A DNA stretch of 64,000 nt from a virus, in the IMG/VR virus record IMGVR_UViG_2623620549_000002, positions 1,871-65,870 of that record; one strand, 5' to 3'. The notes under the pieces are model-generated. The model did not search any database. It was not told the origin of the DNA and saw only the letters and a list, made by a program, of their open reading frames with translations. A program made the translations under genes and the position numbers. Shown here one piece after another: positions 3,009 through 58,672 of the stretch. Position 1 is the stretch's first letter. Each line of letters begins with the position of its first letter.

Positions 3009-3715
3009 GCTGCACCGCCCAGGTCGGCCGCGTCGATCACGATGCCGCGGCAGTACGGTTCGCCGTCTTCAACGATTTCGAAGGTGGCGTGCGGCACATC
3101 GGTGCGATAGGTCCAGCTGTAGCCGTCTTCCTTACCCCACAGGGCATCCACGGCGCGCACCTGCGGCGCCCGGGCGAAATAGTCCTTGAGCGCATCGTCG
3201 TCGTGCTGGATATCCTCGCGGAATGGCAGCAAGCCCTTGGCGTCGATCAGGGCGATGGTCGGCGCGCCGCGCTCGTCGTCCACGAAGCCGCGAAACTCCA
3301 TCAGGTCGTCGCTGGCGCCGAAAATCACGATCAGCCCGGCCGCCTTGGCCTGCTGCTCTTCTTCCTTCACCATTTCCTTGCCGTACTCGCGGCCAGTCAG
3401 CAGGCCGGCCAGCAGCTCCTTGCTCAGCTTGACCGGCGCCAGCTCGATGGCTGGCGTGCCCATGTTCGTGTACGGGTGCTTGTCGGCATGCGGTTTGATG
3501 TGCGCGTAAAAGTGCTTGCCGATGGATTCGGCGCCGGCGAAGGCCGCGTATTCCGTGGCCGTGACGTTGGCGTAGTGGTACACGTCCGCCGGCGCGCCCT
3601 TGCGGAAGAACTGCACGGCCAGGGTTTCGGTAGCCGGGCAGTGGCCGATAGCCGCGATCTGCGAGGACTGGATGGTTTGCAGGGTGATTTGTGGTGCTGC
3701 GACTGCTGTATTCAT
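3005..3715 (-). CDS. KTSC-domain protein fused to a second phage domain
   Basis: Start reassigned to MNTAVAAP (ATG 3715, GGAG upstream). SSQIAAIGH...TLAVQF...YHYANV...AESIGKHF is KTSC-like. Confidence 0.75.
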   Translation of the reverse strand: MNTAVAAPQITLQTIQSSQIAAIGHCPATETLAVQFFRKGAPADVYHYANVTATEYAAFAGAESIGKHFYAHIKPHADKHPYTNMGTPAIELAPVKLSKELLAGLLTGREYGKEMVKEEEQQAKAAGLIVIFGASDDLMEFRGFVDDERGAPTIALIDAKGLLPFREDIQHDDDALKDYFARAPQVRAVDALWGKEDGYSWTYRTDVPHATFEIVEDGEPYCRGIVIDAADLGGAA

Positions 3716-3746
3716 TGGTTTCTCCAGGTGGTGGGCGGGGCGGTGT

Positions 3747-5528
3747 TTATGCGGCTTCGGCGACCAGACCGGCGCGCGCGGCGGCAAAGTCGAATTTGTC
3801 CAGGCGGTCGATGGCCTCGGCTGGCGTCAGGCCGAACTGTTCGAACAACACATCGAGGATGTCGCTGTCGGATGGGTAGAGGTCATCGGCAGCGGCGTCG
3901 AGCAGGTCAGGTGCTGGCGCTGAGCGGCTCGGGGCCGGTACCGGTGCTGCGGCGGTCGGCGCGCGGCGGGCGGCGATAGGGGTGGTCGGTTTGGGCGCCA
4001 CAACTTGGACGCTCGGCTCGGCGGCGCGCTCGGCAGCGATCTGCGAGGCTTGCTCCGCCAGTTGACGCTGCGTGTCGGCTGCCGCGCGCTCGCGTTCGGC
4101 CTGCGCCGCCTCTGCCGCGAGGCGGTCAGATCCGACTTGGGCCAGGCGGATCGTTTCAGCGGCTGCCTTTTCTGCCTTGACGCGCTCCTCTTCCCGGATC
4201 CTGGCCCGTTCGGCTTCGGCTTTCGCTTCCTCGGCGCGCTTGTGATCGGCAATGCGGCTGGTGATGACGAGCTGGAAGTCTTCCATGGGCTTGCCGATGA
4301 TGTTGGCCATGTGCATGAACAGGAAGCCGTAGGTAGCGGCGTGCTCGCGGCACCAAGCCTGTTTGGCGCGGTAGTCGGCTGCCTGGGTATTGGCGGCGAT
4401 CTTGGCGTTGGCCAGCGTGGTGCTGACTGCATCGCGCAAGCTGCCGAGGGTGCGCTTATTCTTCATTGCGCCGGCGAAATCCGGCTGGGACTGCTGCAAG
4501 CGCAGCGGCGTGATTTCGGTTTCGAGCGCGGCGATGTGGGCGGTGAAGGCATGGCGGCCTTCGTTCAAGATGGTTTCTTTGATCTGTTCCTTGCGGGTTT
4601 TGACCAGCTTTTCCAGTTCCAGGCGCTTGGCGCGAAATTGCGCCTTGATGTGGTCGACCGTGCGCATCATTTCGTCAATGGTCGCGGTCTGCGCCAGGGC
4701 GGCAGCCTTGGCCAGTTCCAGCTTATCTTCAGCCTCGCCGCAATACTTGACGGTGTTTTCAGCATTGGCGAAGTCTTCGTCGGTTTCTAGCTTGGTGTTG
4801 ATTTTGGCAATGAACTTCTCGGCGGCGGCCTTGTACGCCACCAGGTTGCTGCTGACGACCTTGCCTTCGGTCTGGACGACCAGGGCGGGCAGGGCGGCAA
4901 TAGGCTCGGCGGCCGGCTTCTCGGCAATGTCGACCTGCGTGTAGTTAACGACGTCGATATCGAATTGCTCCCAGCCGGCGACGATGCGCGCGAACCAGGC
5001 TGTGTCCGGATAAACCCACATCCAGACCATGTTGTTTTCAGTGCCGTCGGATGCCATGAACAGCCACTTCTCGGCGCCGGTGACCAGCAACTGCTGCTGG
5101 ACCTGCGGCTGGTGCTCTTCCGGCAGTACGTCGGCGCGAACTGACGCGGCCAGATCCGCATTCCATTGCTTGTGCTCGAAGCCGATGGTCTCCGCCATGT
5201 TCAGGCCGTCGCAAGAGGCGCTTTCGCGGCCCAGCGACAGGGTGGCGGGGTAGAGGTCGTCGCCGATGATGCGCTCGGCGAACGGGCGCGCCAGCGCTTC
5301 GACCTCGTGGCCATAATCCAGGATGTTTTCCTGTACCCAATCGCTGAATTCCTTGGCCAGGCCTGTCGCCTTCATGCGCACCAGTTCGCTGCGAGTTACC
5401 TTCTTCGACAGACCCAGCATCGCGGCTGCCTCGCTGGCGCCGTGGTGGTTGAAGCGGAACGCGTGCCAGTCATCGCTGCCCTGGAGTAGATTGTGGATTT
5501 CGCGGGTGAGAGTGTTTTCACGTTGCAT
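3747..5528 (-). CDS. YqaJ-like viral recombinase exonuclease with long coiled-coil C-terminus
   Basis: QGSDDWHAFR...GASEAAAMLG...GHEVEALAR...ASCDG...EHK...QVQQQL motifs of the YqaJ/lambda-exonuclease family. Confidence 0.85.
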   Translation of the reverse strand: MQRENTLTREIHNLLQGSDDWHAFRFNHHGASEAAAMLGLSKKVTRSELVRMKATGLAKEFSDWVQENILDYGHEVEALARPFAERIIGDDLYPATLSLGRESASCDGLNMAETIGFEHKQWNADLAASVRADVLPEEHQPQVQQQLLVTGAEKWLFMASDGTENNMVWMWVYPDTAWFARIVAGWEQFDIDVVNYTQVDIAEKPAAEPIAALPALVVQTEGKVVSSNLVAYKAAAEKFIAKINTKLETDEDFANAENTVKYCGEAEDKLELAKAAALAQTATIDEMMRTVDHIKAQFRAKRLELEKLVKTRKEQIKETILNEGRHAFTAHIAALETEITPLRLQQSQPDFAGAMKNKRTLGSLRDAVSTTLANAKIAANTQAADYRAKQAWCREHAATYGFLFMHMANIIGKPMEDFQLVITSRIADHKRAEEAKAEAERARIREEERVKAEKAAAETIRLAQVGSDRLAAEAAQAERERAAADTQRQLAEQASQIAAERAAEPSVQVVAPKPTTPIAARRAPTAAAPVPAPSRSAPAPDLLDAAADDLYPSDSDILDVLFEQFGLTPAEAIDRLDKFDFAAARAGLVAEAA

Positions 5529-7020: not shown

Positions 7021-7210
7021 GTTGCTGACGACCCGGCATAATCCGTCGGGCGTGTGAGTCCTGCGGCTGGTGGGCCGCCAACAAGGGAGGCGTTTGGTCA
7101 GACGGCGGGATTTGCTTTCGGCTCGGCCCCGCTTGCATAGTGCAAACGCCTCTCTTGTTGGCCGCCGGTTACGCCGGCGAAACGGGCCAGGGCGACTGGC
7201 CGGGGTGAAA
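7021..7210 (-). other. highly structured intergenic region in the PL transcript
   Basis: 20-bp inverted repeat (7077-7096 / 7143-7162, 19/20 match) plus short hairpins such as GGCCAG-N5-CTGGCC at 7185-7201. Confidence 0.55.
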
Positions 7211-7390
7211 TCAGGCTGCCGACACCTGCGAAGGGCGGAAGCGCTGGCTTTGCGTCGAGCCGTCCAGCAGCACTTCCAGGAAGTCGCCACGGGCGCCGGG
7301 GTGCGTCTTCACGAACTTGCCCGGGCGCGGCAGCGGCTCGGTTTTCGTGCCCTTCACATTCACCTTCTGATCTTTTTTGAAATTCGACAT
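7211..7390 (-). CDS. small phage protein (59 aa)
   Basis: Read manually: MSNFKKDQKVNVKGTKTEPLPRPGKFVKTHPGARGDFLEVLLDGSTQSQRFRPSQVSAA, with AAGGA RBS. Confidence 0.6.
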   Translation of the reverse strand: MSNFKKDQKVNVKGTKTEPLPRPGKFVKTHPGARGDFLEVLLDGSTQSQRFRPSQVSAA

Positions 7391-7517
7391 GCTGTATTTC
7401 CTTTAAGGTTGGTTGTGGCGCCGGGCTTCCCCGGGCGCCTGATCCTCACGAAGATCAATCGGGGCATGCTGATCCCACAGGGCATTTATCCGGCCCGCCG
7501 GCCTGTCCCGCCTTGAA

Positions 7518-7784
7518 CTACGGTGCGGGCGACCGCTGCTCTTGTTTGGCCAGCTCGACCAGATGGCCGAGCTCTTTGCCGTAGAAGGTGCTGCAGGGAG
7601 AGGCCATACGTGCATCCGTCAGGGCCATGGCATGCGCCACACTTTTGTTGCGGGCCCGGACCTTGTTGCGGTACGTGCCGTCCGTGAAGTGAATCGTCAC
7701 GTCGAAGTGAAAACGCGGGGCCGGCGCATGGTGCTGTGCCAGCTCGGCTTGCAGTTGAGCGGCGTCGTGGTCGCGGGCGCTCAT
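7518..7784 (-). CDS. phage hypothetical protein
   Basis: 88 aa ORF near the start of the leftward operon. Confidence 0.55.
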   Translation of the reverse strand: MSARDHDAAQLQAELAQHHAPAPRFHFDVTIHFTDGTYRNKVRARNKSVAHAMALTDARMASPCSTFYGKELGHLVELAKQEQRSPAP

Positions 7785-7912
7785 GACGATTAGCCGCGGG
7801 CCGGGATTGCGATTGGCGGGATCACTTCGCCATGGGCGACGAGGACCGCTTCAAGTGCTGCGAGCTCTGCTGGGGACATGGTGTACTCCGGTGGTTGCTG
7901 TTCGATAAGCGT

Positions 7913-7954
7913 ATTAAACACCATGTTTATAAACAGAGTCAAACGTTTTGTTTA
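7913..7954 (-). promoter_or_regulatory. PL promoter and OL operators
   Basis: Minus strand TTGACT (7942-7937), 18 bp, TTTAAT (7918-7913). Palindrome TAAACA-CCA-TGTTTA at 7915-7929 and degenerate CAAACG-TTT-TGTTTA at 7940-7954. Confidence 0.75.
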
Positions 7955-8109
7955 ATTTGTGGAGATTTTTGTTTGCTTGAGCGCACGAGGGCTTTGCTGT
8001 TCTGGTGTGTGAACTGACGGACTCCAGGTGTGCTACTGGAGTCGGGAGAGTAGGGGAGTTGTGATTGCTCTACCCAACTTGACTACTTCAATCGCAAAAT
8101 TTTAGGGCG

Positions 8110-8138
8110 AAAAAAAGCCCGCATGTAGCGGGCTTCTT
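8110..8138 (-). terminator. intrinsic terminator for the cI operon
   Basis: AAAAAAAGCCCGC-ATGTA-GCGGGCTT hairpin; U-tract on the minus strand, downstream of 8162..9022. Confidence 0.75.
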
Positions 8139-8161
8139 GAGATGTGGAATAGGGGAGTGGT

Positions 8162-9022
8162 CTACAGAGGCTCTTTCGCAAAAATCTGCCCGGTCTTAGT
8201 GTTGTACACCCAAACTTGGGATAAGGTGGTTACGATTGATGGTCCTGACATTGAGATCTCTGTCGGGCTGTCCATAGTCGCTTTCATGTAGTCGCTGTAT
8301 CGCACAATGTATGGTGCGCTAAGGTTTGTAATGTATAGGATGCCAATATTTCCTTTGCTATCCCTGGCAAGTTCGGGGGCAACTTTAAAAGAAAATTCCG
8401 AGGGGATGTGAATGGACTTTGCTATAGAATTTACGTTGGCAAACGTGATGCCACAAACTAAATAAGTAAAGCTATTTACTTCAATTTTTTTTCCATAACC
8501 ATTTTCAGCCACGTAGCTTCTCGAATCAGATAAATCTTTTATAATCGGTGCTGAGGAATAAAAATTCTCACCAATACGAACTGATTGAGATCCGTGTGAA
8601 ACTATCTTGATCGTCATGGTTTCGGTATCGGCGTCATACTTTGGCAAAAGTAGTGGCCTTGCCGGTGAGAATGCGAGAGTGCTCGTTCCTTTAAGTTTTC
8701 CATATAATGGACTATCTTTGACGAACTCAATACGCTCTGCGAATGCCTTTGAACTCTCGAATTCATCCTTCTCTAACTTGATATTGCCGAGAGGTCTTAC
8801 AATCTCGGCGCAGCTGTGGCCGCGATAATTGGCTGGCAACGATTCAACGCTTATATCAAAGGGATTTTCATCGTAACTGATGGAATCCTGCGCAGTCTTG
8901 CTAGTTTGTTTCGCTTGTTGCTTCTTGGGTGCTACTTTTGATTTTGGCGCATCTTGCGCTTGCAGACAATGATGGAATCCGCCTAGAAGTACTAATGCAA
9001 AAACTACTTTTTTCATAATCAA
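8162..9022 (-). CDS. secreted/periplasmic protein co-transcribed with cI
   Basis: N-terminal signal-peptide-like MKKVVFALVLLGGFHHCLQAQD; AT-rich; directly downstream of cI. Confidence 0.75.
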   Translation of the reverse strand: MIMKKVVFALVLLGGFHHCLQAQDAPKSKVAPKKQQAKQTSKTAQDSISYDENPFDISVESLPANYRGHSCAEIVRPLGNIKLEKDEFESSKAFAERIEFVKDSPLYGKLKGTSTLAFSPARPLLLPKYDADTETMTIKIVSHGSQSVRIGENFYSSAPIIKDLSDSRSYVAENGYGKKIEVNSFTYLVCGITFANVNSIAKSIHIPSEFSFKVAPELARDSKGNIGILYITNLSAPYIVRYSDYMKATMDSPTEISMSGPSIVTTLSQVWVYNTKTGQIFAKEPL

Positions 9023-11922: not shown

Positions 11923-11953
11923 CTTGAAACAACAAAAATTCGCGAAAGAATTT

Positions 11954-12721
11954 ATGACCGAAATTGTACAACACAAAGGCATCACGATAGCGAATACGCT
12001 GATCGCGACTGACAGCGAAGGGCGTTTTCGCCTGAACGATTTGCATCAGGCTGCCGGCGGCGAGAAGCGCCACGGCCCAGCATATTGGATGGACACCCAG
12101 CAAGCCCGCGAGCTGGCTGAGGCGATTGCGGGAGAAATGACGGGCGATACCGGGAAACCGGTATCGGTTATTCGTGGCGGGCAAGGGCAGGGTACCTACA
12201 TGTGCCGTGAGCTGGTTTATGCCTATGCAATGTGGATCAGTCCCAAGTTCCACCTGGAAGTCATCCGCACCTTCGACGCGGTGGCCACCGCCCAAGCGCC
12301 AGTCGCTGCGCTGAAGCCCAGCGCAATCTCGCCCGCCAAGGAATTCCGCGCCATCTTCGGCATTGCGCGCCTGATCGGCCTCGACAAAAACGCCGCCGCC
12401 ATCAGCGCAAACCAGGGCACGGCTGCCCTGACCGGTGTCAACATGCTGCAGCTGATGGAACGCACGCACCTGGCCACGCCCAGCCAGGAGATTTACTACA
12501 CGCCGACCGAGCTGGGCAGCCGCTTCGTCAAGAGCGCCAAGGCATTCAACCAGCTGCTGGTGCAGGCTGGCCTGCAAGAGAACATCGCTGGCCACTGGGT
12601 GCCAACGGAGAAGGGCCGCGAACATGCCTACGTGATGGACACGGGCAAGGCGCATTCCAGCGGCACGCCTATCCAGCAGGTGAAATGGCGCGACTCGGTA
12701 CTGGCGGAGGTGGCATTGTGA
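11954..12721 (+). CDS. KilA-N domain antirepressor-like protein
   Basis: GRFRLNDLHQAAG...QGTYMCRELVYAYAMWISPKFHLEVIRTFD is KilA-N; C-terminal YYTPTELG...WVPTEKG resembles antirepressor C-domains. Confidence 0.85.
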   Translation: MTEIVQHKGITIANTLIATDSEGRFRLNDLHQAAGGEKRHGPAYWMDTQQARELAEAIAGEMTGDTGKPVSVIRGGQGQGTYMCRELVYAYAMWISPKFHLEVIRTFDAVATAQAPVAALKPSAISPAKEFRAIFGIARLIGLDKNAAAISANQGTAALTGVNMLQLMERTHLATPSQEIYYTPTELGSRFVKSAKAFNQLLVQAGLQENIAGHWVPTEKGREHAYVMDTGKAHSSGTPIQQVKWRDSVLAEVAL

Positions 12722-13122
12722 CTGGCCAAGTTGACAATCGCGCGCGCCCGACTTTTGGCGTAAACAAGACGAAACGCCGCCGTTCTGGCGTCACACTCCC
12801 GAAACAAGGCTCCCGCTCTTACGTGCTACTGCAGGCGTTGCTGGCCGGGCCGGGCACGTTTTACCAGGTGTGCGAGCGCGCTGGCTTCGATATCGAAGAG
12901 GCGGGAATGGAGCACCGCCTGCGCATGATCTTCTCGCGCTTCATACAGGGCAATGTGCGCCTGGTGGGTATTCGCTACGTGGTGAAAGACGCCTCGCGCG
13001 CGGCGCTGCTGGGCGCTGAGTCCGAACAGCCTGGCCAGGTGGCCACGCCACACTTTCGCGGCACGTTGGGCGCAATGCCTGTCCTGGTCGTTCGCCGGCC
13101 AGCTGCCGAGGTGTGGCCATGA
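12718..13122 (+). CDS. phage hypothetical protein
   Basis: GTG start overlapping the KilA-N stop (GTGA); 3' part of ORF 12232..13122. Confidence 0.6.
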   Translation: MTGQVDNRARPTFGVNKTKRRRSGVTLPKQGSRSYVLLQALLAGPGTFYQVCERAGFDIEEAGMEHRLRMIFSRFIQGNVRLVGIRYVVKDASRAALLGAESEQPGQVATPHFRGTLGAMPVLVVRRPAAEVWP

Positions 13123-13169
13123 AGCACGTGCATCAATGTCAAAAGGCCACGAAAAGTGAAGTAGTGCAG

Positions 13170-13775
13170 CTACTCAGCTTTGAGGGCTTCAACGCCTTCG
13201 AAAAAGAGCATCTTGGAATTTTCACAGTTCGAAAGCGTCCTTGTCAGAAACCTTTGAATATCTTCTATGGCCGGAAGGAGCGGGTCATTGAGCAACACTT
13301 CAGCCCACTTATCAAATGTGCTGAGGGATTGCACAATTTTGCTCAAACCGCTCACCATTTTATAGGATCCCAACTCCTGCGCCGGAATGGCGCGTGTTGC
13401 ACCTTGCGCTTCCTGCAGTGCAAATTGCGAAGTGAGAATTGCAGAGCGAATATTATTTTCATTCCCTACCGCCAGACTCTCCGTAATCAATTTGCAAAAT
13501 TGCTGCAATTGGTTCATGGCACGGTCTATTACTGCGGCCGTTGCGTCAGCCCGTCGCATCAACGCTCGTTTATCTGCGTCAATCAAGAGCCGAGCAGCGT
13601 GCTGATTCTGCCGAGTCATTATATAAATTGCTACTCCCAAGGCCGCGATAGAGCCTATCGCTTGCACCCAGCCAGACCAATCGGACTTCGTGAGCTCGTA
13701 GTGATTTCCCAAGATAGCGATGTCGATGATCCCGAAGATTACGAGGAGTGCGACGGTCAGATAGGGATATTTCAT
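13170..13775 (-). CDS. antisense moron, membrane-anchored protein
   Basis: Two N-terminal hydrophobic segments (LTVALLVIFGIIDIAIL; WSGWVQAIGSIAALGVAIYIM); lower GC. Confidence 0.75.
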   Translation of the reverse strand: MKYPYLTVALLVIFGIIDIAILGNHYELTKSDWSGWVQAIGSIAALGVAIYIMTRQNQHAARLLIDADKRALMRRADATAAVIDRAMNQLQQFCKLITESLAVGNENNIRSAILTSQFALQEAQGATRAIPAQELGSYKMVSGLSKIVQSLSTFDKWAEVLLNDPLLPAIEDIQRFLTRTLSNCENSKMLFFEGVEALKAE

Positions 13776-13908
13776 GTAGCTGTCAAGAGTTGCTGGAAAG
13801 GAATCTTAGCATGAGGCGCGACCTTCCCATTTCTCCTTCCAGCATTGGTCGTGGTCTGCCCCTCGCCAACTTCGCGCATGAGCGCGAGATTGCGAGGGTG
13901 GCGTGAAC

Positions 13909-14145
13909 TTAACCTCGACCAACCAACTGACGCAGTTTTTTGAGGTGCGCTTCAATGCTCTCGGTGAAGACTTTCGCTTCACGGACTCGCTCCTGAGCCG
14001 CTTCCACGTCCCCCTCATTTGCTTTCACATAGGCAACATGATTTACAGCGGCGGCCCATTTAGCGCTTTTGATGGCCAGCTCATTTTCAAGTTCGTGAAT
14101 TTTATCTTCGATACTTTCATCGGGTCCAGCTTGGTTATAGCTCAT
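13909..14145 (-). CDS. antisense moron, small coiled-coil protein
   Basis: 78 aa, GAGG RBS, heptad pattern. Confidence 0.6.
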   Translation of the reverse strand: MSYNQAGPDESIEDKIHELENELAIKSAKWAAAVNHVAYVKANEGDVEAAQERVREAKVFTESIEAHLKKLRQLVGRG

Positions 14146-14186
14146 ATATCACCTCGGTATGTGGATTGCATTAAGGAAATATTACC

Positions 14187-14615
14187 ATGATCTACGACCT
14201 TTCCCGTTCCGAGCGGCAACACCGCGCTATCGCCAATGAAAGCCCCACGCCGACTTTGGTGCGCAAGGTCTGCGCATGCGGCAAAGCCAGCACCGCCAAG
14301 CAGCTGGCCCAGCACGGCAAATGCGCCGCCTGCGCGCTGGCCGCCGTCCGCGACGCAATCATGCCTGGCGACTTCGCCAAGCTGCAGCACATGCTGGGCG
14401 CCGTGCAGCAATATCCGAAGTCAAAATGGGGCTGGCGCAACTATTTTGCCGCCGACAACGTCCAGCAGCACGAGGCCATGCAGCGCCTCGTGGCCGCCGG
14501 CCTGGCCACGGCTGGCCGCATGACTGGCGACATGACCTACTTCCACGCCACCCGCCTGGGTTGCAAGGCTGCTGGCCTCGACACCGCAGGCATCAAGCGT
14601 GCGATGGAGGATTGA
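14187..14615 (+). CDS. phage hypothetical protein with CxC...CxxC motif
   Basis: AAGGA RBS; VCACGK...KCAAC; GC-rich phage-like codon usage. Confidence 0.7.
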   Translation: MIYDLSRSERQHRAIANESPTPTLVRKVCACGKASTAKQLAQHGKCAACALAAVRDAIMPGDFAKLQHMLGAVQQYPKSKWGWRNYFAADNVQQHEAMQRLVAAGLATAGRMTGDMTYFHATRLGCKAAGLDTAGIKRAMED

Positions 14616-14749
14616 CGATGAACCAGTCCGAATTATTCGCGGCTGGTATCGCGCAATTGCCTGGGCAAGCCATGACAAAAACCGCATATGAGGTAGTTCG
14701 CAGCAGTTCTTCGAGCAGCGCTCGATTTATCGGGAAAGTCGATATTTCC

Positions 14750-15382
14750 TTACTTGAACTGCAATCCCCAATCAGCCTCACGCTCTATAACGTCACGTCC
14801 CTGCTCAATAAGGGGGATTGCGTTGCTCAAGATACCAATGCATTCAGAAAGGTGCTCGCGGAGACTATCGGTATTCGTATCAGTGGCATCTGTTCCTTTC
14901 AGTATTTTGACGCACGCATTGATAACACCTTGACCCAGCGCGATTTTGTCCGCGCAGTGATCTGGAAGAGGAATAAGCCTGCTCAACTCATCCGCAGTGA
15001 AATAGACGCTGCGATCAAGAGTATCGCTAACAATGAAAATTGCCTTAATTACATCGTGCTCAACAGCGGCATGCTCATCAAGAAAATCTCTCAAGTTCGA
15101 CAGGGATTCAAGAACCCCTTTTGCAAGCGACTCTGTATGCAGCAAATTCATGTGGATGTGGAGAGCAGTCAATTTAGCCTTGGAAAGAGCTTCTGCTCGT
15201 CTGTGCCTGGACTCGTTTGTTGCAAGCCAAATAGTTCCCAAGAGGGTGGAGATCGTACCAACCGCAGCAACCCAATATGCCCATACCGTAATGTCCATCT
15301 TGCACCATGGAATTCCTTCGTAGCCAGCCAAACCTATGGCTCCGGCTATGACCATGATTGCCCATTTGTCGTACCAAGCCAT
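14750..15382 (-). CDS. antisense moron, membrane-anchored protein
   Basis: Start MAWYDKW (ATG 15382, GAGG upstream); two N-terminal hydrophobic segments (WAYWVAAVGTISTLLGTIWLA). Confidence 0.75.
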   Translation of the reverse strand: MAWYDKWAIMVIAGAIGLAGYEGIPWCKMDITVWAYWVAAVGTISTLLGTIWLATNESRHRRAEALSKAKLTALHIHMNLLHTESLAKGVLESLSNLRDFLDEHAAVEHDVIKAIFIVSDTLDRSVYFTADELSRLIPLPDHCADKIALGQGVINACVKILKGTDATDTNTDSLREHLSECIGILSNAIPLIEQGRDVIEREADWGLQFK

Positions 15383-15438
15383 CCTGCCTCCGAATTTAGT
15401 TGGCGGAATGGTAACACGCAAAGTATTGGCGGTGGGAA

Positions 15439-16185
15439 ATGATCCACTACCACGGACTGCCAATAACCCCGGCTACCGCCGCGGTACGTGCCATCAGCTG
15501 TGGCCACGCCTTCGTTTCGTTCCGCCATTCGGACCAGTTGACCATCGCCTTGGAGGTGGCGCAGTCGTTTGCAGTCGACAATGGGGCTTTCTCGGCCTGG
15601 CGCAGCGGCCAACCGATCACAGACTGGTCGCTATTCTATGAATGGGTGGGTGAGTTACACCGTTACCCGAACTTCGATTTCGCGGTAATCCCTGACGTCA
15701 TCGACGGTAGCGAGGCCGACAACGATGCGCTGCTGGCCGAATGGCCATGGCGAGCGTCGGCGCCGCATGTCGGTGCGCCGGTGTGGCATCTACACGAGTC
15801 GCTGGGCCGTTTGGATCGCCTCGTCAGCGATTGGCCGCGCATTTGCCTGGGCAGTTCGGGCGAGTTCGCGCAGATCGGTACGCCGGCGTGGTGGACCCGA
15901 ATGGCCATGGCAATGGATGTGATCTGCGACCGGCAGGGGCTGCCTGCGGCGAAAGTTCATGGGCTGAGAATGCTTGATCCAGCCATTTTCTCTCGCTTCC
16001 CGTTCTCCAGCGCCGACAGCACCAACATCGGCCAGAACGTGGGGATTGATTCGGCGTGGCGCGGTACCTACACGCCGCCAACGAAAGAGGCGCGCGCGGC
16101 CATCATGCGGGAGCGTATCGAGACGCACCAGTCGATCACGTTCTGGCAGCGAACGGCCGCGCCAATTCAGGAGGGGCTGTTTTAA
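15439..16185 (+). CDS. TGT/DpdA-like (tRNA-guanine transglycosylase fold) protein
   Basis: Ordered motifs DNGAFS, AVIPDVI, PVWH, ICLGSS, VHGLR, SADSTN parallel the TGT/DpdA barrel motifs. Assignment is by eye. Confidence 0.6.
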   Translation: MIHYHGLPITPATAAVRAISCGHAFVSFRHSDQLTIALEVAQSFAVDNGAFSAWRSGQPITDWSLFYEWVGELHRYPNFDFAVIPDVIDGSEADNDALLAEWPWRASAPHVGAPVWHLHESLGRLDRLVSDWPRICLGSSGEFAQIGTPAWWTRMAMAMDVICDRQGLPAAKVHGLRMLDPAIFSRFPFSSADSTNIGQNVGIDSAWRGTYTPPTKEARAAIMRERIETHQSITFWQRTAAPIQEGLF

Positions 16186-16204
16186 TGACTCTGAAAAAAC
16201 CCAT

Positions 16205-16459
16205 TTATTTAATCCAGTGCAGGGCTTGTGCTGCAGTGATGCCTGTACTGATCGCAGAAATTAACATGCCGAATGCCGCGACGATTGCTGCAACCATGGT
16301 CCATTTTGCTGAACGCTGCGCTGCTTCGGCAGCTAATTTTGCCGCGGCGCTGGAGTCGGCGGCCGTCGCCATTGTTGAAGCAGCTAATTCTTCTAGAGCT
16401 GTCGCCGTTCGTTTTGCCGAATGTGCTTTCAGGAATTCAGTGGGTTCCATAATTTCCAT
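16205..16459 (-). CDS. antisense moron, small protein with C-terminal TM helix
   Basis: 84 aa; KWTMVAAIVAAFGMLISAISTGI hydrophobic segment. Confidence 0.6.
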   Translation of the reverse strand: MEIMEPTEFLKAHSAKRTATALEELAASTMATAADSSAAAKLAAEAAQRSAKWTMVAAIVAAFGMLISAISTGITAAQALHWIK

Positions 16460-16483
16460 TTCTAGCGAAAAGCGAATCGTAGC

Positions 16484-16969
16484 ATGATGCGTCGCTCCCC
16501 CATGAAGCCCGCTACCACGCCGATGAAACGCACGGCTTTCGCACGAAGCGAGCGCATCGAGGCGCGCGAAGTGTCAAAGCTCAAGCGTACGGCGCCGAAG
16601 CGCAAGGTCGGCTTGAGGGCCAAAGGCCAGCGCTCGACGCCGATCCGGCGCGCCGCGCGCGGCCAGGACTGCACGCTGCGCCTGGCCGTCTGCAACTTCG
16701 ACCCTGACACCACCGTGCTTTGCCACTCGAATTTCCTGGCGGACGGAAAAGGCTTGGGCCTGAAGGCACCAGACACGGCCGCCGCGTTCGGCTGCAGCGC
16801 CTGCCACGACGTACTTGACGGCCGGCGCCCGCGCCCGGCTGATCTGTCGCTGGAATGCCTGCAGGCTGCCTTTCGCTTGGCCGTGGGCCGCACACACGAA
16901 ATTTTACGGTCAATGGGTCTGCTCGCTGCGGCGGCCAATAATCAAAAACAAAATATGGAACACACATGA
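16484..16969 (+). CDS. DUF1364/YbcO-family nuclease-like protein
   Basis: ARGQDCTLRL.VCNFDPDTTVLCH...GKGLGLKAPD...AFGCSACHDVLDGR. Confidence 0.85.
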   Translation: MMRRSPMKPATTPMKRTAFARSERIEAREVSKLKRTAPKRKVGLRAKGQRSTPIRRAARGQDCTLRLAVCNFDPDTTVLCHSNFLADGKGLGLKAPDTAAAFGCSACHDVLDGRRPRPADLSLECLQAAFRLAVGRTHEILRSMGLLAAAANNQKQNMEHT

Positions 16970-17373
16970 CGCGAATTAACTTCAGTGAATTTGTTCTGGG
17001 CGCTATGCCCGGCACCAAAGCCGATATCGTCACTAAGTCCGGCGTCAGCCAGGCAGCCGTGCTGCGCTGGGTGCGCTTGCTGCACGCCGATCGCAAGATC
17101 CATATCGCCGGCTGGCGGCCGCACCCGCGTGCTGGCGCCGCCATGGCTGTGTATGCCGTCGGCAACCTGCCAGACGCGCCGTGCAAGCTGCAGCACCTGT
17201 CCAAGCGCCAGATTCGCTTGCGCTTCGAGGCCAAGGCCAAGAAGGACGGCCGCTATGACTCGATGAAGGCGCGCTGGCGCAGCAAGTACTGGATCCGAAA
17301 GGCGGGCGCCGTGGGTGACCCGCTGGTAGTGGCCCTGTTCGGCACGGCGCGTGTGCAGGAGGCCCTTCCTTGA
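16966..17373 (+). CDS. phage hypothetical protein, probable winged-helix
   Basis: TKADIVTKSGVSQAAVLRWVRLL HTH-like segment; coupled to both neighbours. Confidence 0.6.
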   Translation: MTRINFSEFVLGAMPGTKADIVTKSGVSQAAVLRWVRLLHADRKIHIAGWRPHPRAGAAMAVYAVGNLPDAPCKLQHLSKRQIRLRFEAKAKKDGRYDSMKARWRSKYWIRKAGAVGDPLVVALFGTARVQEALP

Positions 17374-40987: not shown

Positions 40988-41125
40988 ATGGCGATCACTA
41001 CAGAAATTGGCGCTGGCCTGCCCGATACCGAATCTTATGTCAGTGTCGTTGCGGCAAACGTGCGGTGCGCCAGCCTGTGGCTGACAGCCTGGGCGGCGTT
41101 GCTACCGCCTAGTTCTAACACTTAA
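40988..41125 (+). pseudogene. truncated duplicate of the 5' end of the DnaT-like adaptor gene
   Basis: MAITTEIGAGLPDTESYVSVVAANVRCASLWLTAWAAL vs MLVETGAGLPDAESYASIAAADARCASLGLTAWAAL at 42079. Confidence 0.8.
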
Positions 41126-42009
41126 TTCTTGTCGATTTCGATCGGGGCGGTTCTCTCAAAATAACGAAGCTGAAGCTGTAGAGACTGAAGTTCTCCAAAT
41201 AAAGTTTCAACGCCGACATGTTCGAAAGCGATATGCGTAATCTCTATATCAGGGCGTATCTTTGATTTATGCCATTCGATGTCTTCTCCGGTTGGAGGAT
41301 GTAGTTGAATTAATCCATGAGACTTAGAAAATTCTGAGGGGGATTGGTCAAAAGGACTTACTGTTGGATTTTCCAATCTAGTACTAAATATCATGAAGTC
41401 TAAATTCTCAATGCCGACTATTGTTTTCTGAGAATTTGTCTCCGAAACCAACGGAGTCTTATCTGCGCGAAACATCCGGTATCCGTGGTGAAATAATCTG
41501 CACTTCCATGATTCCCCACTGTGCCTCCCTACAAATATTCTCCACTCCCCTTGCGGAGGAAGTCGCAGGCTACGAAGCCAAAGCCGCTCCGTTTCTAGTA
41601 TCGACATGGTATCTGGATCGTCGAATTCAAATGTCATTGCTGTCATAGTCGCCCAAGCAGCAAGGATGGCTTGATCCTTTGTACTAATCAAGAAATTCAC
41701 GTCTTGTATCATTTTTATGATAATCGATGATGCCCGGTCTTGAAGCACGCTCATCCACTCATTGTTGCATTTGACGCAAACGACTTTTAGGCGCTTTGAT
41801 CTTGGGCTACCGTTTTTTTGCTTAACCACTGTAGAACTCATGCCGTCGGTCTTGGTTCTTGATTTGGATTGAAAAGTGCGATCCTCGTGTTTACGAGGGG
41901 TGAGTATTTTATCGAGCCACTGCGGAAGTACATGTTCATCACTGTTCGCGTCGTTTTTGCAAAAAGCACATTGTTGTTTATGCACATACTGTGATGGCTT
42001 GGCGGACAT
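41122..42009 (-). CDS. antisense moron, HNH-like Zn-binding protein
   Basis: CAFC...SDEHVLPQWL and LKVVCVKCNNEWMS; AT-rich. Confidence 0.7.
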   Translation of the reverse strand: MSAKPSQYVHKQQCAFCKNDANSDEHVLPQWLDKILTPRKHEDRTFQSKSRTKTDGMSSTVVKQKNGSPRSKRLKVVCVKCNNEWMSVLQDRASSIIIKMIQDVNFLISTKDQAILAAWATMTAMTFEFDDPDTMSILETERLWLRSLRLPPQGEWRIFVGRHSGESWKCRLFHHGYRMFRADKTPLVSETNSQKTIVGIENLDFMIFSTRLENPTVSPFDQSPSEFSKSHGLIQLHPPTGEDIEWHKSKIRPDIEITHIAFEHVGVETLFGELQSLQLQLRYFERTAPIEIDKN

Positions 42010-55991: not shown

Positions 55992-56822
55992 ATGCCAAAT
56001 CTCCGCATCATCTACGACAACGCCGCTGACCGCGCGGTGCTGACCGCATCGAGCCAGGCTGACGCGCTGGGGCCAGCCAACCTGCAACGTGAAGGCAAGT
56101 ATGACGTTCTGCGCTCGCTCGGCCTGACCCTGACCATCACCGCCACCTGGCCCACGCCCGAGATCGTCGGCTGCGCGGCCCTGCCATTTTGCAACCTGAC
56201 GCCGACGGCGACGATCCGCGTGCGCGGCTATGTCGAGCCAGGTGACGCCGTGCCCGATTTCGATACAGGCATAGTATCGGCCTGCGAATACGCTGGGCTG
56301 GGCATGTGGGACTGGGGCGCGCTGCCGCTGGGCGTGAATGCCTATAGCTACGGCGGCGGCACGTACGCGCGCTGCTGGCTGCCGATGGTCAGTGTCAAAA
56401 AACTGGTGATCGAGCTGGCGGACCCGGACAACCCGGCAGGCTACATCGAGGCGGCGCGCTTCGTGACCGGCCCTTACTGGAGTCCCGAACTAAATGCTTC
56501 GTATGGTGCTGGCGTCACTTCAGTCGACACCAGTACCCAGAATAGGGACGGCGCTGGCGGCCAGACCGTGGCGCGCGGCGCGCTGTACCGGAAGCTCACG
56601 CTGGCGCTCGATCATATGACACCGCTGGACAGGGCCGAGGTGTGGCGCATCCTGCGTGGCAACGGCCTGTCGCGCCCGCTGCTGGTCAGTTTGTATCCAG
56701 AGAGCGACGACGGTGAGCTTGAGCAGGCGCACCAGGTGTATGGCCGCATCGCCAGTAATTCCGCCATCACCACCCCGTATTACCAGGCATATGCCACCAA
56801 CATCGAAATCGAGGAAATGTAA
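55992..56822 (+). CDS. distal tail-like protein
   Basis: MPNLRIIYDNAADRA...YIEAARFVTGPYWSP. Confidence 0.65.
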   Translation: MPNLRIIYDNAADRAVLTASSQADALGPANLQREGKYDVLRSLGLTLTITATWPTPEIVGCAALPFCNLTPTATIRVRGYVEPGDAVPDFDTGIVSACEYAGLGMWDWGALPLGVNAYSYGGGTYARCWLPMVSVKKLVIELADPDNPAGYIEAARFVTGPYWSPELNASYGAGVTSVDTSTQNRDGAGGQTVARGALYRKLTLALDHMTPLDRAEVWRILRGNGLSRPLLVSLYPESDDGELEQAHQVYGRIASNSAITTPYYQAYATNIEIEEM

Positions 56823-58672
56823 TGAGCGCCTTTTTTTACTATGGCCAAAAGGATACGATCCGACGCCTGAATGAATTGGCCGGGCGCGGCGCCGTGGTGG
56901 CATCGTATGCGCCAGCGGTGGGGCGGTCGCCACTCGGTGGGGTGAATGGTTTTATTACGCCTGAATGGCTGGACCCGAGCATCCCAATTTTCACAAATTC
57001 TCCTGTCGTGGTGGGCGTGACCAATAAGTACGGCTATAGCTACATCGGCCAAAATCCCCCGACTGGCCTTTGGTATCGGATCGCCACTTTTGCAGTTGAC
57101 GGCGGCAGCAATGCACAGCATCTGCGTATTGACGGGGTTTTGAATGATAGCTGGGCAGCAAACGCTAGTTCCCCGTTCGTGCTCATGCTGGGCGTCCGGG
57201 GTGGTTTCTACTACGATTCGACGTTTAATGGCGCCGTTCCGATAAACACGCGTATGCAGGTTTTTCAGCAGGTGAACGGAACGTTTGAGGTTTACCTGAA
57301 TTTCCGGGCTGGTACGTTTGGATCGGCGTCCTTTAGCCTGCAGGGCTTTACCACTACCACATACGCACAACCTGTATCAGTAACAGCAATTCCATCTGGA
57401 ACACTGATCTACGATTCGGGCAACACTGCTATGTACCCGCCACGCATGAGGGGAATCTCCTCGTCCGGCCTGTACTCCGGCGCACAGAACGCTGTGCAGA
57501 TAAACAACGGCTTATTTATCGGTGACTGGACGACGGGCGGGTCTTACATTTTGAACTGCCCAGTTGGCACTGCAGCAGGCAGTGTGAACAGCGTCATTTC
57601 TTCGGGCATCGGCGGACTGGTCGGCACCTACTCGGCTGGCAGTATCGGTTGGTACGTGTCCGGCGGAAACGGAGCCTTGCCAGGCAAAGAAGGCTACCGG
57701 TATATCCTTCGAGCTTACGACAAAAACTCCAACACGACCTCAGCGGACATAGCAAGGTTTGGCGGGAATGGCCTGGTCTATATTCAGCTCTTAAAAGCAG
57801 GTAGCGGGGATGTTAATGCCCGGCATAACATCAGCCGAGGCTCTGCCCAGGGCGATGAGATACTTCATGTAGGTAGGGACGGTGCAACAAACCCTAGTGT
57901 GGCAGTCCTTGCCGCAGATGGTGCGGGCGGATGGAATGGCGCTAGCAGTGTGCTGTATGTTGGTAAGAATTCTGCGACCGGACGCAGCGTTTCTGTCCCA
58001 GGAACAGTAAATACGATGGGCAACGATTATGCCGAGTACATTTTCAAAAGCTCGACATGCAGCAGCGTAGCTCCTGGGCAGATTGTCGGTATCACCGCAG
58101 ACAATAAGGTTACCGACAAGTGGGCCGACGCCGTGATGTTTTCGATTAAATCGACCGCGCCCTCGTTCGTTGGTGGCGACTCATGGGCAAGCGACATAGG
58201 GTCGCGCCCGTCGCCCCAGGCAGGGCCAGCGCCGACCCAGTCCCAGCGTCGCGCCGATGTCATCACGCAGCAGCCACTGCCAGGGAGCAATCCGCCGGAA
58301 TTCGAGGACGTGGTAAGCGAATATGGCGATACCGATGACGAGTGGATCGAAAAGCAGGCCGCCTATACCGCCGCGCTGGCTGCTCACAACGCAGCCGTGC
58401 AGCAGGACGTCGAAGCCATGGCCGTCTTCGACGCGGCGCTGGAAGTCGAGCGCCAGAAGGTCGACCGCATCGCCATCGCCGGCCGCGTGCCGGTGAACGT
58501 GCTGGGCGCCCAGCCGGGCGATTACATCGTGCCGGTCCAAGATGGCGCCGGTGTCACGGGCATTCCCGTCCACCAGGCGGACCTCACCCATTTGCAGTAC
58601 CTGCAGGCCGTCGGCCGTGTGATTTCGATTGAGCCCGACGGCCGCGCCTATGTGATGGTCAAGGTCGTGTAG
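56822..58672 (+). CDS. tail fibre/receptor-binding protein with C-terminal autocleaving chaperone-like domain
   Basis: Gly/Ser/Thr-rich beta body; C-terminal NDYAEY...GQIVGI...IAIAGRVPV resembles Peptidase_G2/IMC chaperones. Confidence 0.7.
   Translation: MSAFFYYGQKDTIRRLNELAGRGAVVASYAPAVGRSPLGGVNGFITPEWLDPSIPIFTNSPVVVGVTNKYGYSYIGQNPPTGLWYRIATFAVDGGSNAQHLRIDGVLNDSWAANASSPFVLMLGVRGGFYYDSTFNGAVPINTRMQVFQQVNGTFEVYLNFRAGTFGSASFSLQGFTTTTYAQPVSVTAIPSGTLIYDSGNTAMYPPRMRGISSSGLYSGAQNAVQINNGLFIGDWTTGGSYILNCPVGTAAGSVNSVISSGIGGLVGTYSAGSIGWYVSGGNGALPGKEGYRYILRAYDKNSNTTSADIARFGGNGLVYIQLLKAGSGDVNARHNISRGSAQGDEILHVGRDGATNPSVAVLAADGAGGWNGASSVLYVGKNSATGRSVSVPGTVNTMGNDYAEYIFKSSTCSSVAPGQIVGITADNKVTDKWADAVMFSIKSTAPSFVGGDSWASDIGSRPSPQAGPAPTQSQRRADVITQQPLPGSNPPEFEDVVSEYGDTDDEWIEKQAAYTAALAAHNAAVQQDVEAMAVFDAALEVERQKVDRIAIAGRVPVNVLGAQPGDYIVPVQDGAGVTGIPVHQADLTHLQYLQAVGRVISIEPDGRAYVMVKVV

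Follow-up and report, generated by a model that had tools for sequence, protein, structure and literature searches.

Organization of the early operon

The window analyzed here is a stretch of 64,000 nucleotides (nt) from the IMG/VR virus record IMGVR_UViG_2623620549_000002 (positions 1,871 to 65,870 of that record). Between 11924 and 18807, its plus strand carries the early operon (rightward, replication-side) of a Janthinobacterium-type temperate phage, and low-GC segments of this operon (GC content, 0.47-0.51) hold four plus-strand open reading frames (ORFs), each opposite one minus-strand ORF. We refer to the minus-strand ORFs as cargo A to D and to the plus-strand ORFs opposite them as bridge ORFs 1 to 4. 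The bridge ORFs run without a stop codon across the backward gene and end on the start codon of the next operon gene, and about 40 inserts of related phage loci show the same bridged arrangement. The bridge and cargo ORFs of the window are as follows (aa, amino acids; SD, Shine-Dalgarno sequence).

Bridge ORF 1, 13119-13814, plus strand: 231 codons, codon-aligned opposite cargo A; ATGA at both ends, GAGGTG before the start.
Bridge ORF 2, 13903-14190, plus strand: 95 codons, codon-aligned opposite cargo B; GTGA and ATGA junctions.
Bridge ORF 3, 14612 (TTG, 4-nt overlap) or 14618 (ATG, GGAGG upstream, 2-nt gap) to 15442, plus strand: codon-aligned opposite cargo C.
Bridge ORF 4, 16185-16487, plus strand: 100 codons, opposite cargo D but not codon-aligned; TAATG and ATGA junctions, AGGAGG upstream.
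Cargo A, 13170-13775, minus strand: 201 aa, two predicted transmembrane helices and a four-helix bundle; judged a real gene.
Cargo B, 13909-14145, minus strand: 78 aa, predicted coiled coil, GAGGTG SD; an orphan of uncertain gene status.
Cargo C, 14750-15382, minus strand: 210 aa, protein with two predicted transmembrane helices, ATG preceded by GGAGG; judged a real gene.
Cargo D, 16205-16459, minus strand: 84 aa (or 81 aa), Ala-rich, predicted C-terminal transmembrane helix.

Walking along the plus strand from ORF to ORF, we found that each ORF between 11924 and 18807 begins on the stop codon of the preceding one. The 13 consecutive junctions comprise 11 NTGA overlaps, one TAATG, and one (14612/14618) that can be read as a TTGA overlap or as a 2-nt gap. 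A first-pass annotation, made from the sequence alone, had listed nine ORFs of this chain between 12718 and 16969; all nine and their junctions were recovered by the walk and by an ORF check, but the chain extends beyond that range. Its observation that three of the four antisense ORFs are codon-aligned with the sense ORF was also confirmed (A, B, and C are aligned, while D lies in another register). Bridge ORF 3 terminates on the ATGA of the following gene, and the ORF after bridge ORF 4 (16484-16969) likewise begins at an ATGA.

Apart from the bridges, the gene order on the plus strand is KilA-N/Ant-like, 134-aa gene, Cys-rich 142-aa gene, TGT/DpdA-like, YbcO-like nuclease, and the replication-type DUF1376 and DUF6475 genes. 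Together with a short link, these features are as follows.

11924-12721, plus strand: KilA-N/anti-repressor-like early gene (Pfam KilA-N, E = 5e-20; PHROG 129), with a 4-nt overlap with the next gene.
12718-13122, plus strand: core early gene of 134 aa, the first ORF of the first-pass annotation; high GC at third codon positions.
13811-13906, plus strand: 31-codon link with an ATGA start junction and a GTGA end junction; relic of a methylase gene.
14187-14615, plus strand: core early gene of 142 aa with four conserved Cys residues; ATGA start junction.
15439-16185, plus strand: TGT/DpdA-like core gene (PHROG 887, E = 1e-67); ATGA start junction.
16484-18807, plus strand: YbcO-like nuclease gene, 135-aa gene, DUF1376 primosomal/replication gene, 63-aa gene, and DUF6475 gene (Pfam), with 4-nt overlaps throughout.

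The operon strand has a GC content of 62-68% across the early region (0.62-0.68 in the flanks of the cargo), and homologues of the operon proteins come nearly all from Janthinobacterium and its relatives; a megablast comparison of the region with deposited phages gave no match. Among the related loci, which carry L numbers here, the 134-aa core gene is 84-93% identical in L001, L004, L005, L037, L043, L046, and L053, and it lies upstream of A-family cargo in most related loci in which it was detected. The 142-aa core gene is 75-82% identical in 6 loci and was found in 20 further loci; in most relatives, antisense cargo comes directly after it or one to two genes on. The core genes that precede A and C were considered as paralogues (a duplication of the module), which was rejected because they show no similarity.

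The backward cargo genes

The cargo ORFs A to D have GC contents of 0.48-0.51. In a collection of 5.8 billion proteins, 41 homologues of A (mostly from Janthinobacterium) and 27 homologues of C were found. A and C are distant paralogues (BLASTP E = 1e-5), and their family combines a conserved N-terminal pair of transmembrane helices with a variable C-terminal helical domain; the AlphaFold2 (AF2) model of A (pLDDT, 79.5) has two transmembrane helices followed by a four-helix bundle. Altogether, 33 of the 46 cargo ORFs fall into one superfamily, and the rest form 11 small or single-member groups. The four antisense genes had been called morons, that is, extra genes of deviant GC between conserved phage genes, such as lambda bor and lom and HK97 gp15. 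Judging from their similarity, A and C are members of one superfamily long resident in these slots and not independent recent acquisitions. Moron-like traits of the cargo are the deviant GC and slots that hold different cargo between relatives with 75-93% identical core genes. Cargo GC stays at 47-52% in phages of 62-68% GC despite the apparent long residence of the superfamily.

Among A and C homologues, substitutions in the minus-strand cargo frame rank third > first > second codon position (p3 > p1 > p2); between L002 and L013, for instance, the differences are 0.21 at p1, 0.18 at p2, and 0.57 at p3. Because substitutions concentrate at minus-strand third positions, A and C are, on this pattern, real minus-strand genes under purifying selection. 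The pattern is the reverse of that expected from a selected plus-strand protein. Cargo B has itself as its sole match among the 5.8 billion proteins and no relative in the fetched loci. Cargo D has one relative (55% identity, E = 6e-8), which occupies the same slot preceding a YbcO gene; a sense ORF runs across this relative as well and overlaps each of its neighbors by 4 nt. Four real-looking antisense genes had been proposed for the window: all four exist as low-GC ORFs and A and C qualify as real, whereas B is an orphan and D is backed by a single known relative.

Searches of Pfam, PHROGs, and PADLOC returned nothing meaningful about cargo function; among the PADLOC models of antiphage defense, none matched A, C, or D, and B gave a chance-level match to Cas11d only. 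A structure search with the AF2 model of A retrieved only generic helical bundles and uncharacterized proteins, and an Atlas search with the cargo retrieved only unnamed clusters. One source names an A homologue DUF4760 (PF15956); we rejected this name, since no member of the A1/A2 alignments reaches the Pfam model, and a DUF4760 cluster has an Atlas similarity of no more than 0.79. A scan for consensus promoters and terminators gave two promoter-like and five terminator-like sites, which equals the shuffled expectation, and they are not suitably placed. The spacers around the cargo measure only 19-56 nt. A -35/-10 pair read by hand upstream of C was unconvincing and was dropped.

Recurrence and junctions of the bridged inserts

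To the loci retrieved by cargo similarity we added 17 further independent loci ascertained via the core 142-aa gene alone. In these, the walk from ORF to ORF yielded 15 bridge ORFs opposite antisense ORFs, of which 14 start at a 4-nt overlap with the upstream stop codon (the core-core junctions of related loci have such an overlap at 43 of 57 sites) and 11 start with ATG, against an expectation of 25% (P = 1e-4). All 16 genes located after a bridge start with an ATG placed on the bridge's TGA. SD-like motifs occur upstream of 47% of bridge starts and 47% of core genes (background, 18%) and upstream of 88% of the genes following a bridge.

Openness is not confined to the part of the frame that lies opposite the cargo. 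The non-cargo parts of 44 inserts contain no stop in 1597 codons of the bridge frame, compared with 74 to 77 stops in each other frame, and the 134 nt past the stop codon of cargo C in the window are also stop-free in the bridge frame only. Thus, the "easy" codon-aligned frame is not the whole explanation.

The spacers that lead into the next gene are conserved. Two junction modules are present in the window.

A-family junction module, 13776-13814: end of the bridge ORF, AAGGAA SD, 7 nt, and ATGA start of the next plus-strand gene.
C-family junction module, 15383-15442: on the minus strand, the GGAGG SD of the cargo; on the plus strand, GGTGGGAA and the ATGA of the next gene.

The A-family block is near-invariant in 8 loci despite saturated divergence of the cargo, and about 55 nt of the C-family module are near-invariant in 9 loci, the downstream gene being DpdA-like here and YbcO elsewhere. 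These near-invariant SD and ATGA spacers indicate that the cassette brings start signals for whichever gene comes next, and cassettes may be exchanged by recombination at the junction modules. Identity of the flanking core genes is 75-93% where the cargo is 30-55% identical or replaced outright; hence, the slots are hypervariable. L004, from an uncultured Janthinobacterium metagenome-assembled genome, is a near-identical phage with a 98% identical cargo A. On its minus strand, 3297-3872 and 2153-2821 hold different antisense genes (191 and 222 aa) where the window has B and C, and both replacement genes are bridged with 4-nt overlaps. Comparison of L004 with the window thus shows directly that cassettes are replaced while the frame around them is conserved. 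In two other loci (L053, 5001-5963, and L055, 5001-5993), the 142-aa core gene is truncated, with only residues ~1-107 matching, and it runs in frame into the bridge frame over the next antisense gene to form a fusion ORF of 320-330 codons.

The 31-codon link between bridge ORFs 1 and 2 has a different origin. In tblastn searches, residues 12-31 of 13811-13906 match the 3' end of a gene of 713-875 aa in more than 10 loci, and its 5' codons align with the start of the same gene, which encodes a C-5 cytosine DNA methylase (Pfam) and in relatives separates the A cassette from the small insert that comes next. The alignments point to an in-frame internal deletion of the methylase gene that has left the first ~11 and last ~20 codons. 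A purpose-built intergenic bridge was considered for this ORF and rejected, given that its codons match the start and the 3' end of the methylase gene. As an unbroken link of the chain it was described correctly, in that it is coupled at both ends, with the ATGA start and the GTGA end of its parent gene; its identity, however, is that of a relic of a deleted gene.

Specific loss of three codons from embedded genes

In a codon-aligned pair, the complements of TTA, CTA, and TCA are stop codons in the reverse frame, and we refer to these three as mirror-stop codons. Cargo A, B, and C contain none of them in 489 codons, while six other low-GC genes of the window used as controls (GC, 0.49-0.53; 2025 codons) contain 48, or 2.4 per 100 codons. 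A and C each have 25 Leu codons, along with 13 Ser codons in A and 12 in C, and none of these is a mirror-stop codon. When the proteins were recoded with control usage, the probability of an open frame was 0.0034 for A, 0.27 for B, and 0.0039 for C, or 3.7e-6 jointly; equally open frames in codon-shuffled morons, an outcome that the first-pass annotation had named as a refutation, are therefore not seen for A, B, and C taken together. The minus-strand ORF at 56780-57370 was rejected as a control gene because it is a shadow ORF of a plus-strand gene of 616 aa (56822-58672). It has 196 codons without mirror-stop codons, lies opposite this tail-fibre-like gene, and is not itself a gene.

For an unbiased comparison, 35 loci were fetched purely by similarity to A or C. 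Mirror-stop codons are absent from 13 of the 16 embedded members in these loci and from none of the 14 members in other or unclear contexts (Fisher, 4.8e-6), which have 1 to 15 each, the count in non-embedded relatives being 2 to 15. Frequent sense-frame stops in homologous inserts had likewise been named as a refuting outcome, and the embedded members do not show it. The pooled embedded set comprises 24 codon-aligned genes with 4795 codons and was in part chosen by a walk that requires openness. Its usage of the three codons within their synonymous boxes compares as follows.

Embedded codon-aligned genes (24): TTA/TTR, 0/130; CTA/CTN, 0/360; TCA/TCN, 0/156; total, 0/646.
Low-GC controls of the window: TTA/TTR, 15/56; CTA/CTN, 20/172; TCA/TCN, 13/80; total, 48/308.
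Non-embedded superfamily members: TTA/TTR, 19/70; CTA/CTN, 20/150; TCA/TCN, 16/69; total, 55/289.

The depletion that had been proposed as a check of embedded against non-embedded genes is thus complete in this embedded set. Other A-ending codons have normal frequencies in embedded genes (AAA, 62%; CAA, 59%; GAA, 54%; GTA, 17%; ACA, 22%; GCA, 30%), indicating that the purge is specific to the three codons with a stop complement.

Absence of selection on the bridge product

The bridge frame was compared with a null in which the synonymous codons of each homologue were redrawn at random from the usage of embedded genes. In 24 pairs, the observed amino acid identity of the sense frame equals the simulated identity, with z mostly between -0.7 and 2; one pair reaches 4.3 and still shares ancestry. 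Bridge ORF translations have no match in Pfam or PHROG. Of the two overlapping frames, then, the cargo frame is under purifying selection and the bridge frame is at the synonymous-random expectation: there is no selection on the polypeptide that the bridge frame would yield. Embedded homologues differ to saturation at synonymous sites (p3, 0.57-0.75), and a mirror-stop codon is found in 0 of ~30 lineages. Taken together, these two observations argue for continuing maintenance of the open frame rather than a single filter at acquisition.

Exceptions and alternative explanations

Several observations weigh against selection for an open bridge frame or limit its scope. (i) The sense frame opposite D stays open in 58% of synonymous permutations (P = 0.58); it is cheap because the protein is Ala-rich. 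D was therefore rejected as independent statistical support, and its link, on its own, is not open beyond chance. (ii) The embedded cargo of L009 (Massilia sp.; 3884-4504) has three stops in the aligned frame, and that of L028 has one near the 5' end of the cargo and is partly bridged. (iii) A low-GC minus-strand gene of 295 aa in the late (structural) operon of the window (41122-42009) has 15 TTA, CTA, or TCA codons and is unbridged, the sense frame opposite it having many stops, unlike that of the early-operon cargo; this contrast would be compatible with bridges being important at genes that rely on coupling. (iv) In L041, an antisense tyrosine integrase (7208-8203, minus strand) in the downstream part of a similar operon is also unbridged. 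(v) The upstream junction alone is weak evidence, because NTGA yields a start codon three times out of four if GTG and TTG are allowed; the evidential weight of the junctions is in their phase, the full span, and the termination exactly on the next ATG. (vi) Independent origins are far fewer than inserts, because most cargo ORFs (33 of 46) come from a single superfamily and junction modules are inherited; the partial choice of the pooled set for openness belongs here as well. The proposal that the phage accepts antisense cargo "only if" ribosomes can traverse the sense strand is supported as regards selection of open and joined frames, but "only if" is too strong in view of L009, L028, and 41122-42009. 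The L041 ORF was dropped as a cargo counterexample, being an integrase and probably part of another element or at the operon end; a further insertion, or else the prophage boundary, may lie there. Opposite the L009 cargo lie four short ORFs (19, 56, 34, and 99 codons) with mutual overlaps of 4-7 nt, a series that could reflect stepwise reinitiation or chance.

The open frames might be a passive by-product if the cargo family avoids TTA, CTA, and TCA through host-adapted usage and the junctions arose by coincidence. Among antisense frames the codon-aligned one is the easiest to leave open, the three codons are rare in high-GC hosts, and the frame opposite D is open by composition. However, these codons make up 12-27% of their boxes in other low-GC genes of this phage and in superfamily members that are not embedded, whereas other A-ending codons are used at normal rates in the embedded genes; in addition, non-cargo spacers are stop-free in the bridge frame only, and the downstream junctions are in phase in 16 of 16 cases. 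This explanation is already largely refuted, and we regard it as very improbable. Equally improbable is a filter on arrival, in which a cassette that happened to be stop-free, with fitting junctions, entered a single time and was spread through recombination between junction modules without being maintained thereafter. It would account for junction modules that are near-identical between loci and for the predominance of one superfamily among the cargo. It does not account for the saturation of synonymous sites, for a sense-frame identity at the random-synonymous expectation, or for the presence of the feature in unrelated cargo families; moreover, none of ~30 lineages gained a mirror-stop codon, although a 200-codon gene is open with a P of only ~0.004 at control usage.

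Dual coding, in which functional proteins would also be made from the sense ORFs across from the cargo, is improbable as well. These ORFs are long (95-276 codons), have start codons and often an SD, and are kept as ORFs in many loci, and antisense overlapping genes have been claimed in Escherichia coli and Pseudomonas (PMC8850804). Against such dual coding, sense-frame identity is no higher than the random-synonymous expectation given cargo conservation, the first position of the sense frame is the most variable codon position, the translations lack Pfam and PHROG matches, and bridges cover unrelated cargo families and even noncoding spacers. More difficult to separate from ribosome transit along the operon is selection of bridge translation for another RNA-level reason, such as blocking sense-antisense pairing and RNase III cleavage or protecting the RNA from decay. 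A selected but unconstrained open frame fits this explanation equally well, and the narnavirus precedent stresses ribosome protection of RNA (PMC8316113). It remains unlikely, since by itself it explains neither why the frame ends exactly on the stop and start codons of the neighbors nor why an SD and ATGA are carried for the next gene.

The first-pass annotation had itself cautioned that the codon-aligned frame is the easiest to leave open. An easy-frame artifact is contradicted by the recurrence of the arrangement, the specific purge, the stop-free spacers, and the non-embedded relatives that retain the codons, and we consider it very probable that both the openness of the bridge frame and the phase of its junctions are under selection.

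Ribosome transit as the proposed function

Translation of the bridge frames, with coupling and avoidance of Rho polarity as the selective reasons, is the most likely explanation of the anatomy, recurrence, codon purge, and lack of protein-level constraint that we observe. According to this model, low-GC accessory genes are embedded on the opposite strand of the early operon, and selection keeps the operon-strand frame stop-free over each cargo, which in the aligned frame means an absence of TTA, CTA, and TCA. Selection also keeps the frame joined to its neighbors, with its start overlapping the upstream stop and its TGA overlapping the next ATG, and the SD preceding that ATG travels with the cassette. 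During lytic transcription, ribosomes that end the upstream gene would reinitiate on the bridge ORF, cross the backward gene on the bridge frame, and then terminate at the next ATGA. As the first-pass annotation also conjectured, the cargo may be expressed in the lysogen and silenced by transcription in the lytic phase. Translation protects transcripts from Rho, and we propose that transit over the bridge leaves coupling uninterrupted and no long untranslated RNA open to this factor. At AUGA overlaps in bacteria, expression has been shown experimentally to depend strictly on translation of the upstream ORF (PMC11260477). Ribosome transit that preserves termination-reinitiation coupling and avoids Rho polarity is thus, in our judgment of the sequence evidence, the probable reason for the bridges.

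More broadly, the inserts might be described as translationally transparent cassettes, each of which would combine a backward gene that has lost all three mirror-stop codons with a portable SD/ATGA module for whichever operon gene comes next. Meaningless translation of the bridge would then be the obligatory cost of keeping lysogen-expressed genes in operons that depend on reinitiation and lack antitermination. We consider it about as likely as not that this is a general, hitherto unpublished rule; in the literature searched, we found no description of stop-free bridge frames over antisense genes in phage operons.

If the model is true, these frames are selected only to be translated and not for their product, a rare and clean case in a DNA genome, and they sit atop a functional gene on the other strand. 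It would explain how backward, probably lysogen-expressed, genes persist in essential early operons without breaking them. For annotation, bridge ORFs would not be hypothetical proteins, and gene callers may choose the wrong strand; the specific loss of TTA, CTA, and TCA would be a signature of embedded cargo that separates bridge ORFs from real genes. In phage engineering, a payload placed antisense in a coupled operon would have to leave the mirror frame free of stops and keep its junctions in phase. How much translational coupling and Rho polarity each count in the design of phage operons would become directly testable.

Comparison with known systems

Like morons, the cargo are low-GC accessory genes between conserved phage genes; they differ from one relative to another, and their expression from the prophage is probable. 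Classical morons are described as self-contained, each having a promoter and a terminator of its own, whereas the cargo share their DNA with an operon frame and carry the signals of the next gene; to our knowledge, no opposite-strand requirement has been described for classical morons. In noncontiguous operons, reportedly exemplified by menE-menC...ytkD of Staphylococcus aureus (Saenz-Lahoya et al. 2019), an opposite gene lies inside an operon and the transcript reads across it. The likeness is the gene of opposite orientation within an operon; the emphasis there is reportedly on mutual transcript processing, and no stop-free bridging frame is known to have been described.

The bridge ORFs resemble the embedded antisense genes of E. 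coli and Pseudomonas aeruginosa in being long ORFs directly antisense to a known gene. Those pairs are argued to encode selected proteins (PMC8850804), whereas the bridge frame failed the constraint test. With termination-reinitiation coupling at AUGA-type overlaps (Kipkorir et al. 2024, PMC11260477; Huber et al. 2019 as cited there), they share the 4-nt stop/start overlap and a downstream gene that depends on arriving ribosomes, the upstream sequence itself being possibly irrelevant. Rho termination is discussed in the same paper as an alternative cost of nontranslation. The AUGA cases involve short leader ORFs or ordinary neighbors, unlike the spacer ORFs of ~95-280 codons described here, which are threaded through a functional gene on the opposite strand.

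The closest parallel to the codon purge is found in ambigrammatic narnaviruses, in which the reverse frame is stop-free over a whole gene through avoidance of three complementary codons (PMC8316113); here, the reverse frame is open over the whole gene in A, B, and C and in 24 embedded homologues. The reverse ORF of Culex narnavirus 1 is codon-aligned and stop-free, and its translation itself has been proposed to matter (Retallack et al. 2021, PMC8316113). As with the bridge ORFs, its product has no recognizable homology, and it is the act of translation, not the protein, that is proposed to be relevant. Narnaviruses are eukaryotic RNA viruses with a single gene and no operon, whereas the frames described here belong to operons of DNA phages; the selected protein is encoded on the backward strand, and overlapping start and stop codons tie the open frame into a series of real genes. 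To these precedents the window adds four inserts within 4 kb, a superfamily with both embedded and non-embedded members, portable junction modules, and a test that finds no constraint on the bridge product.

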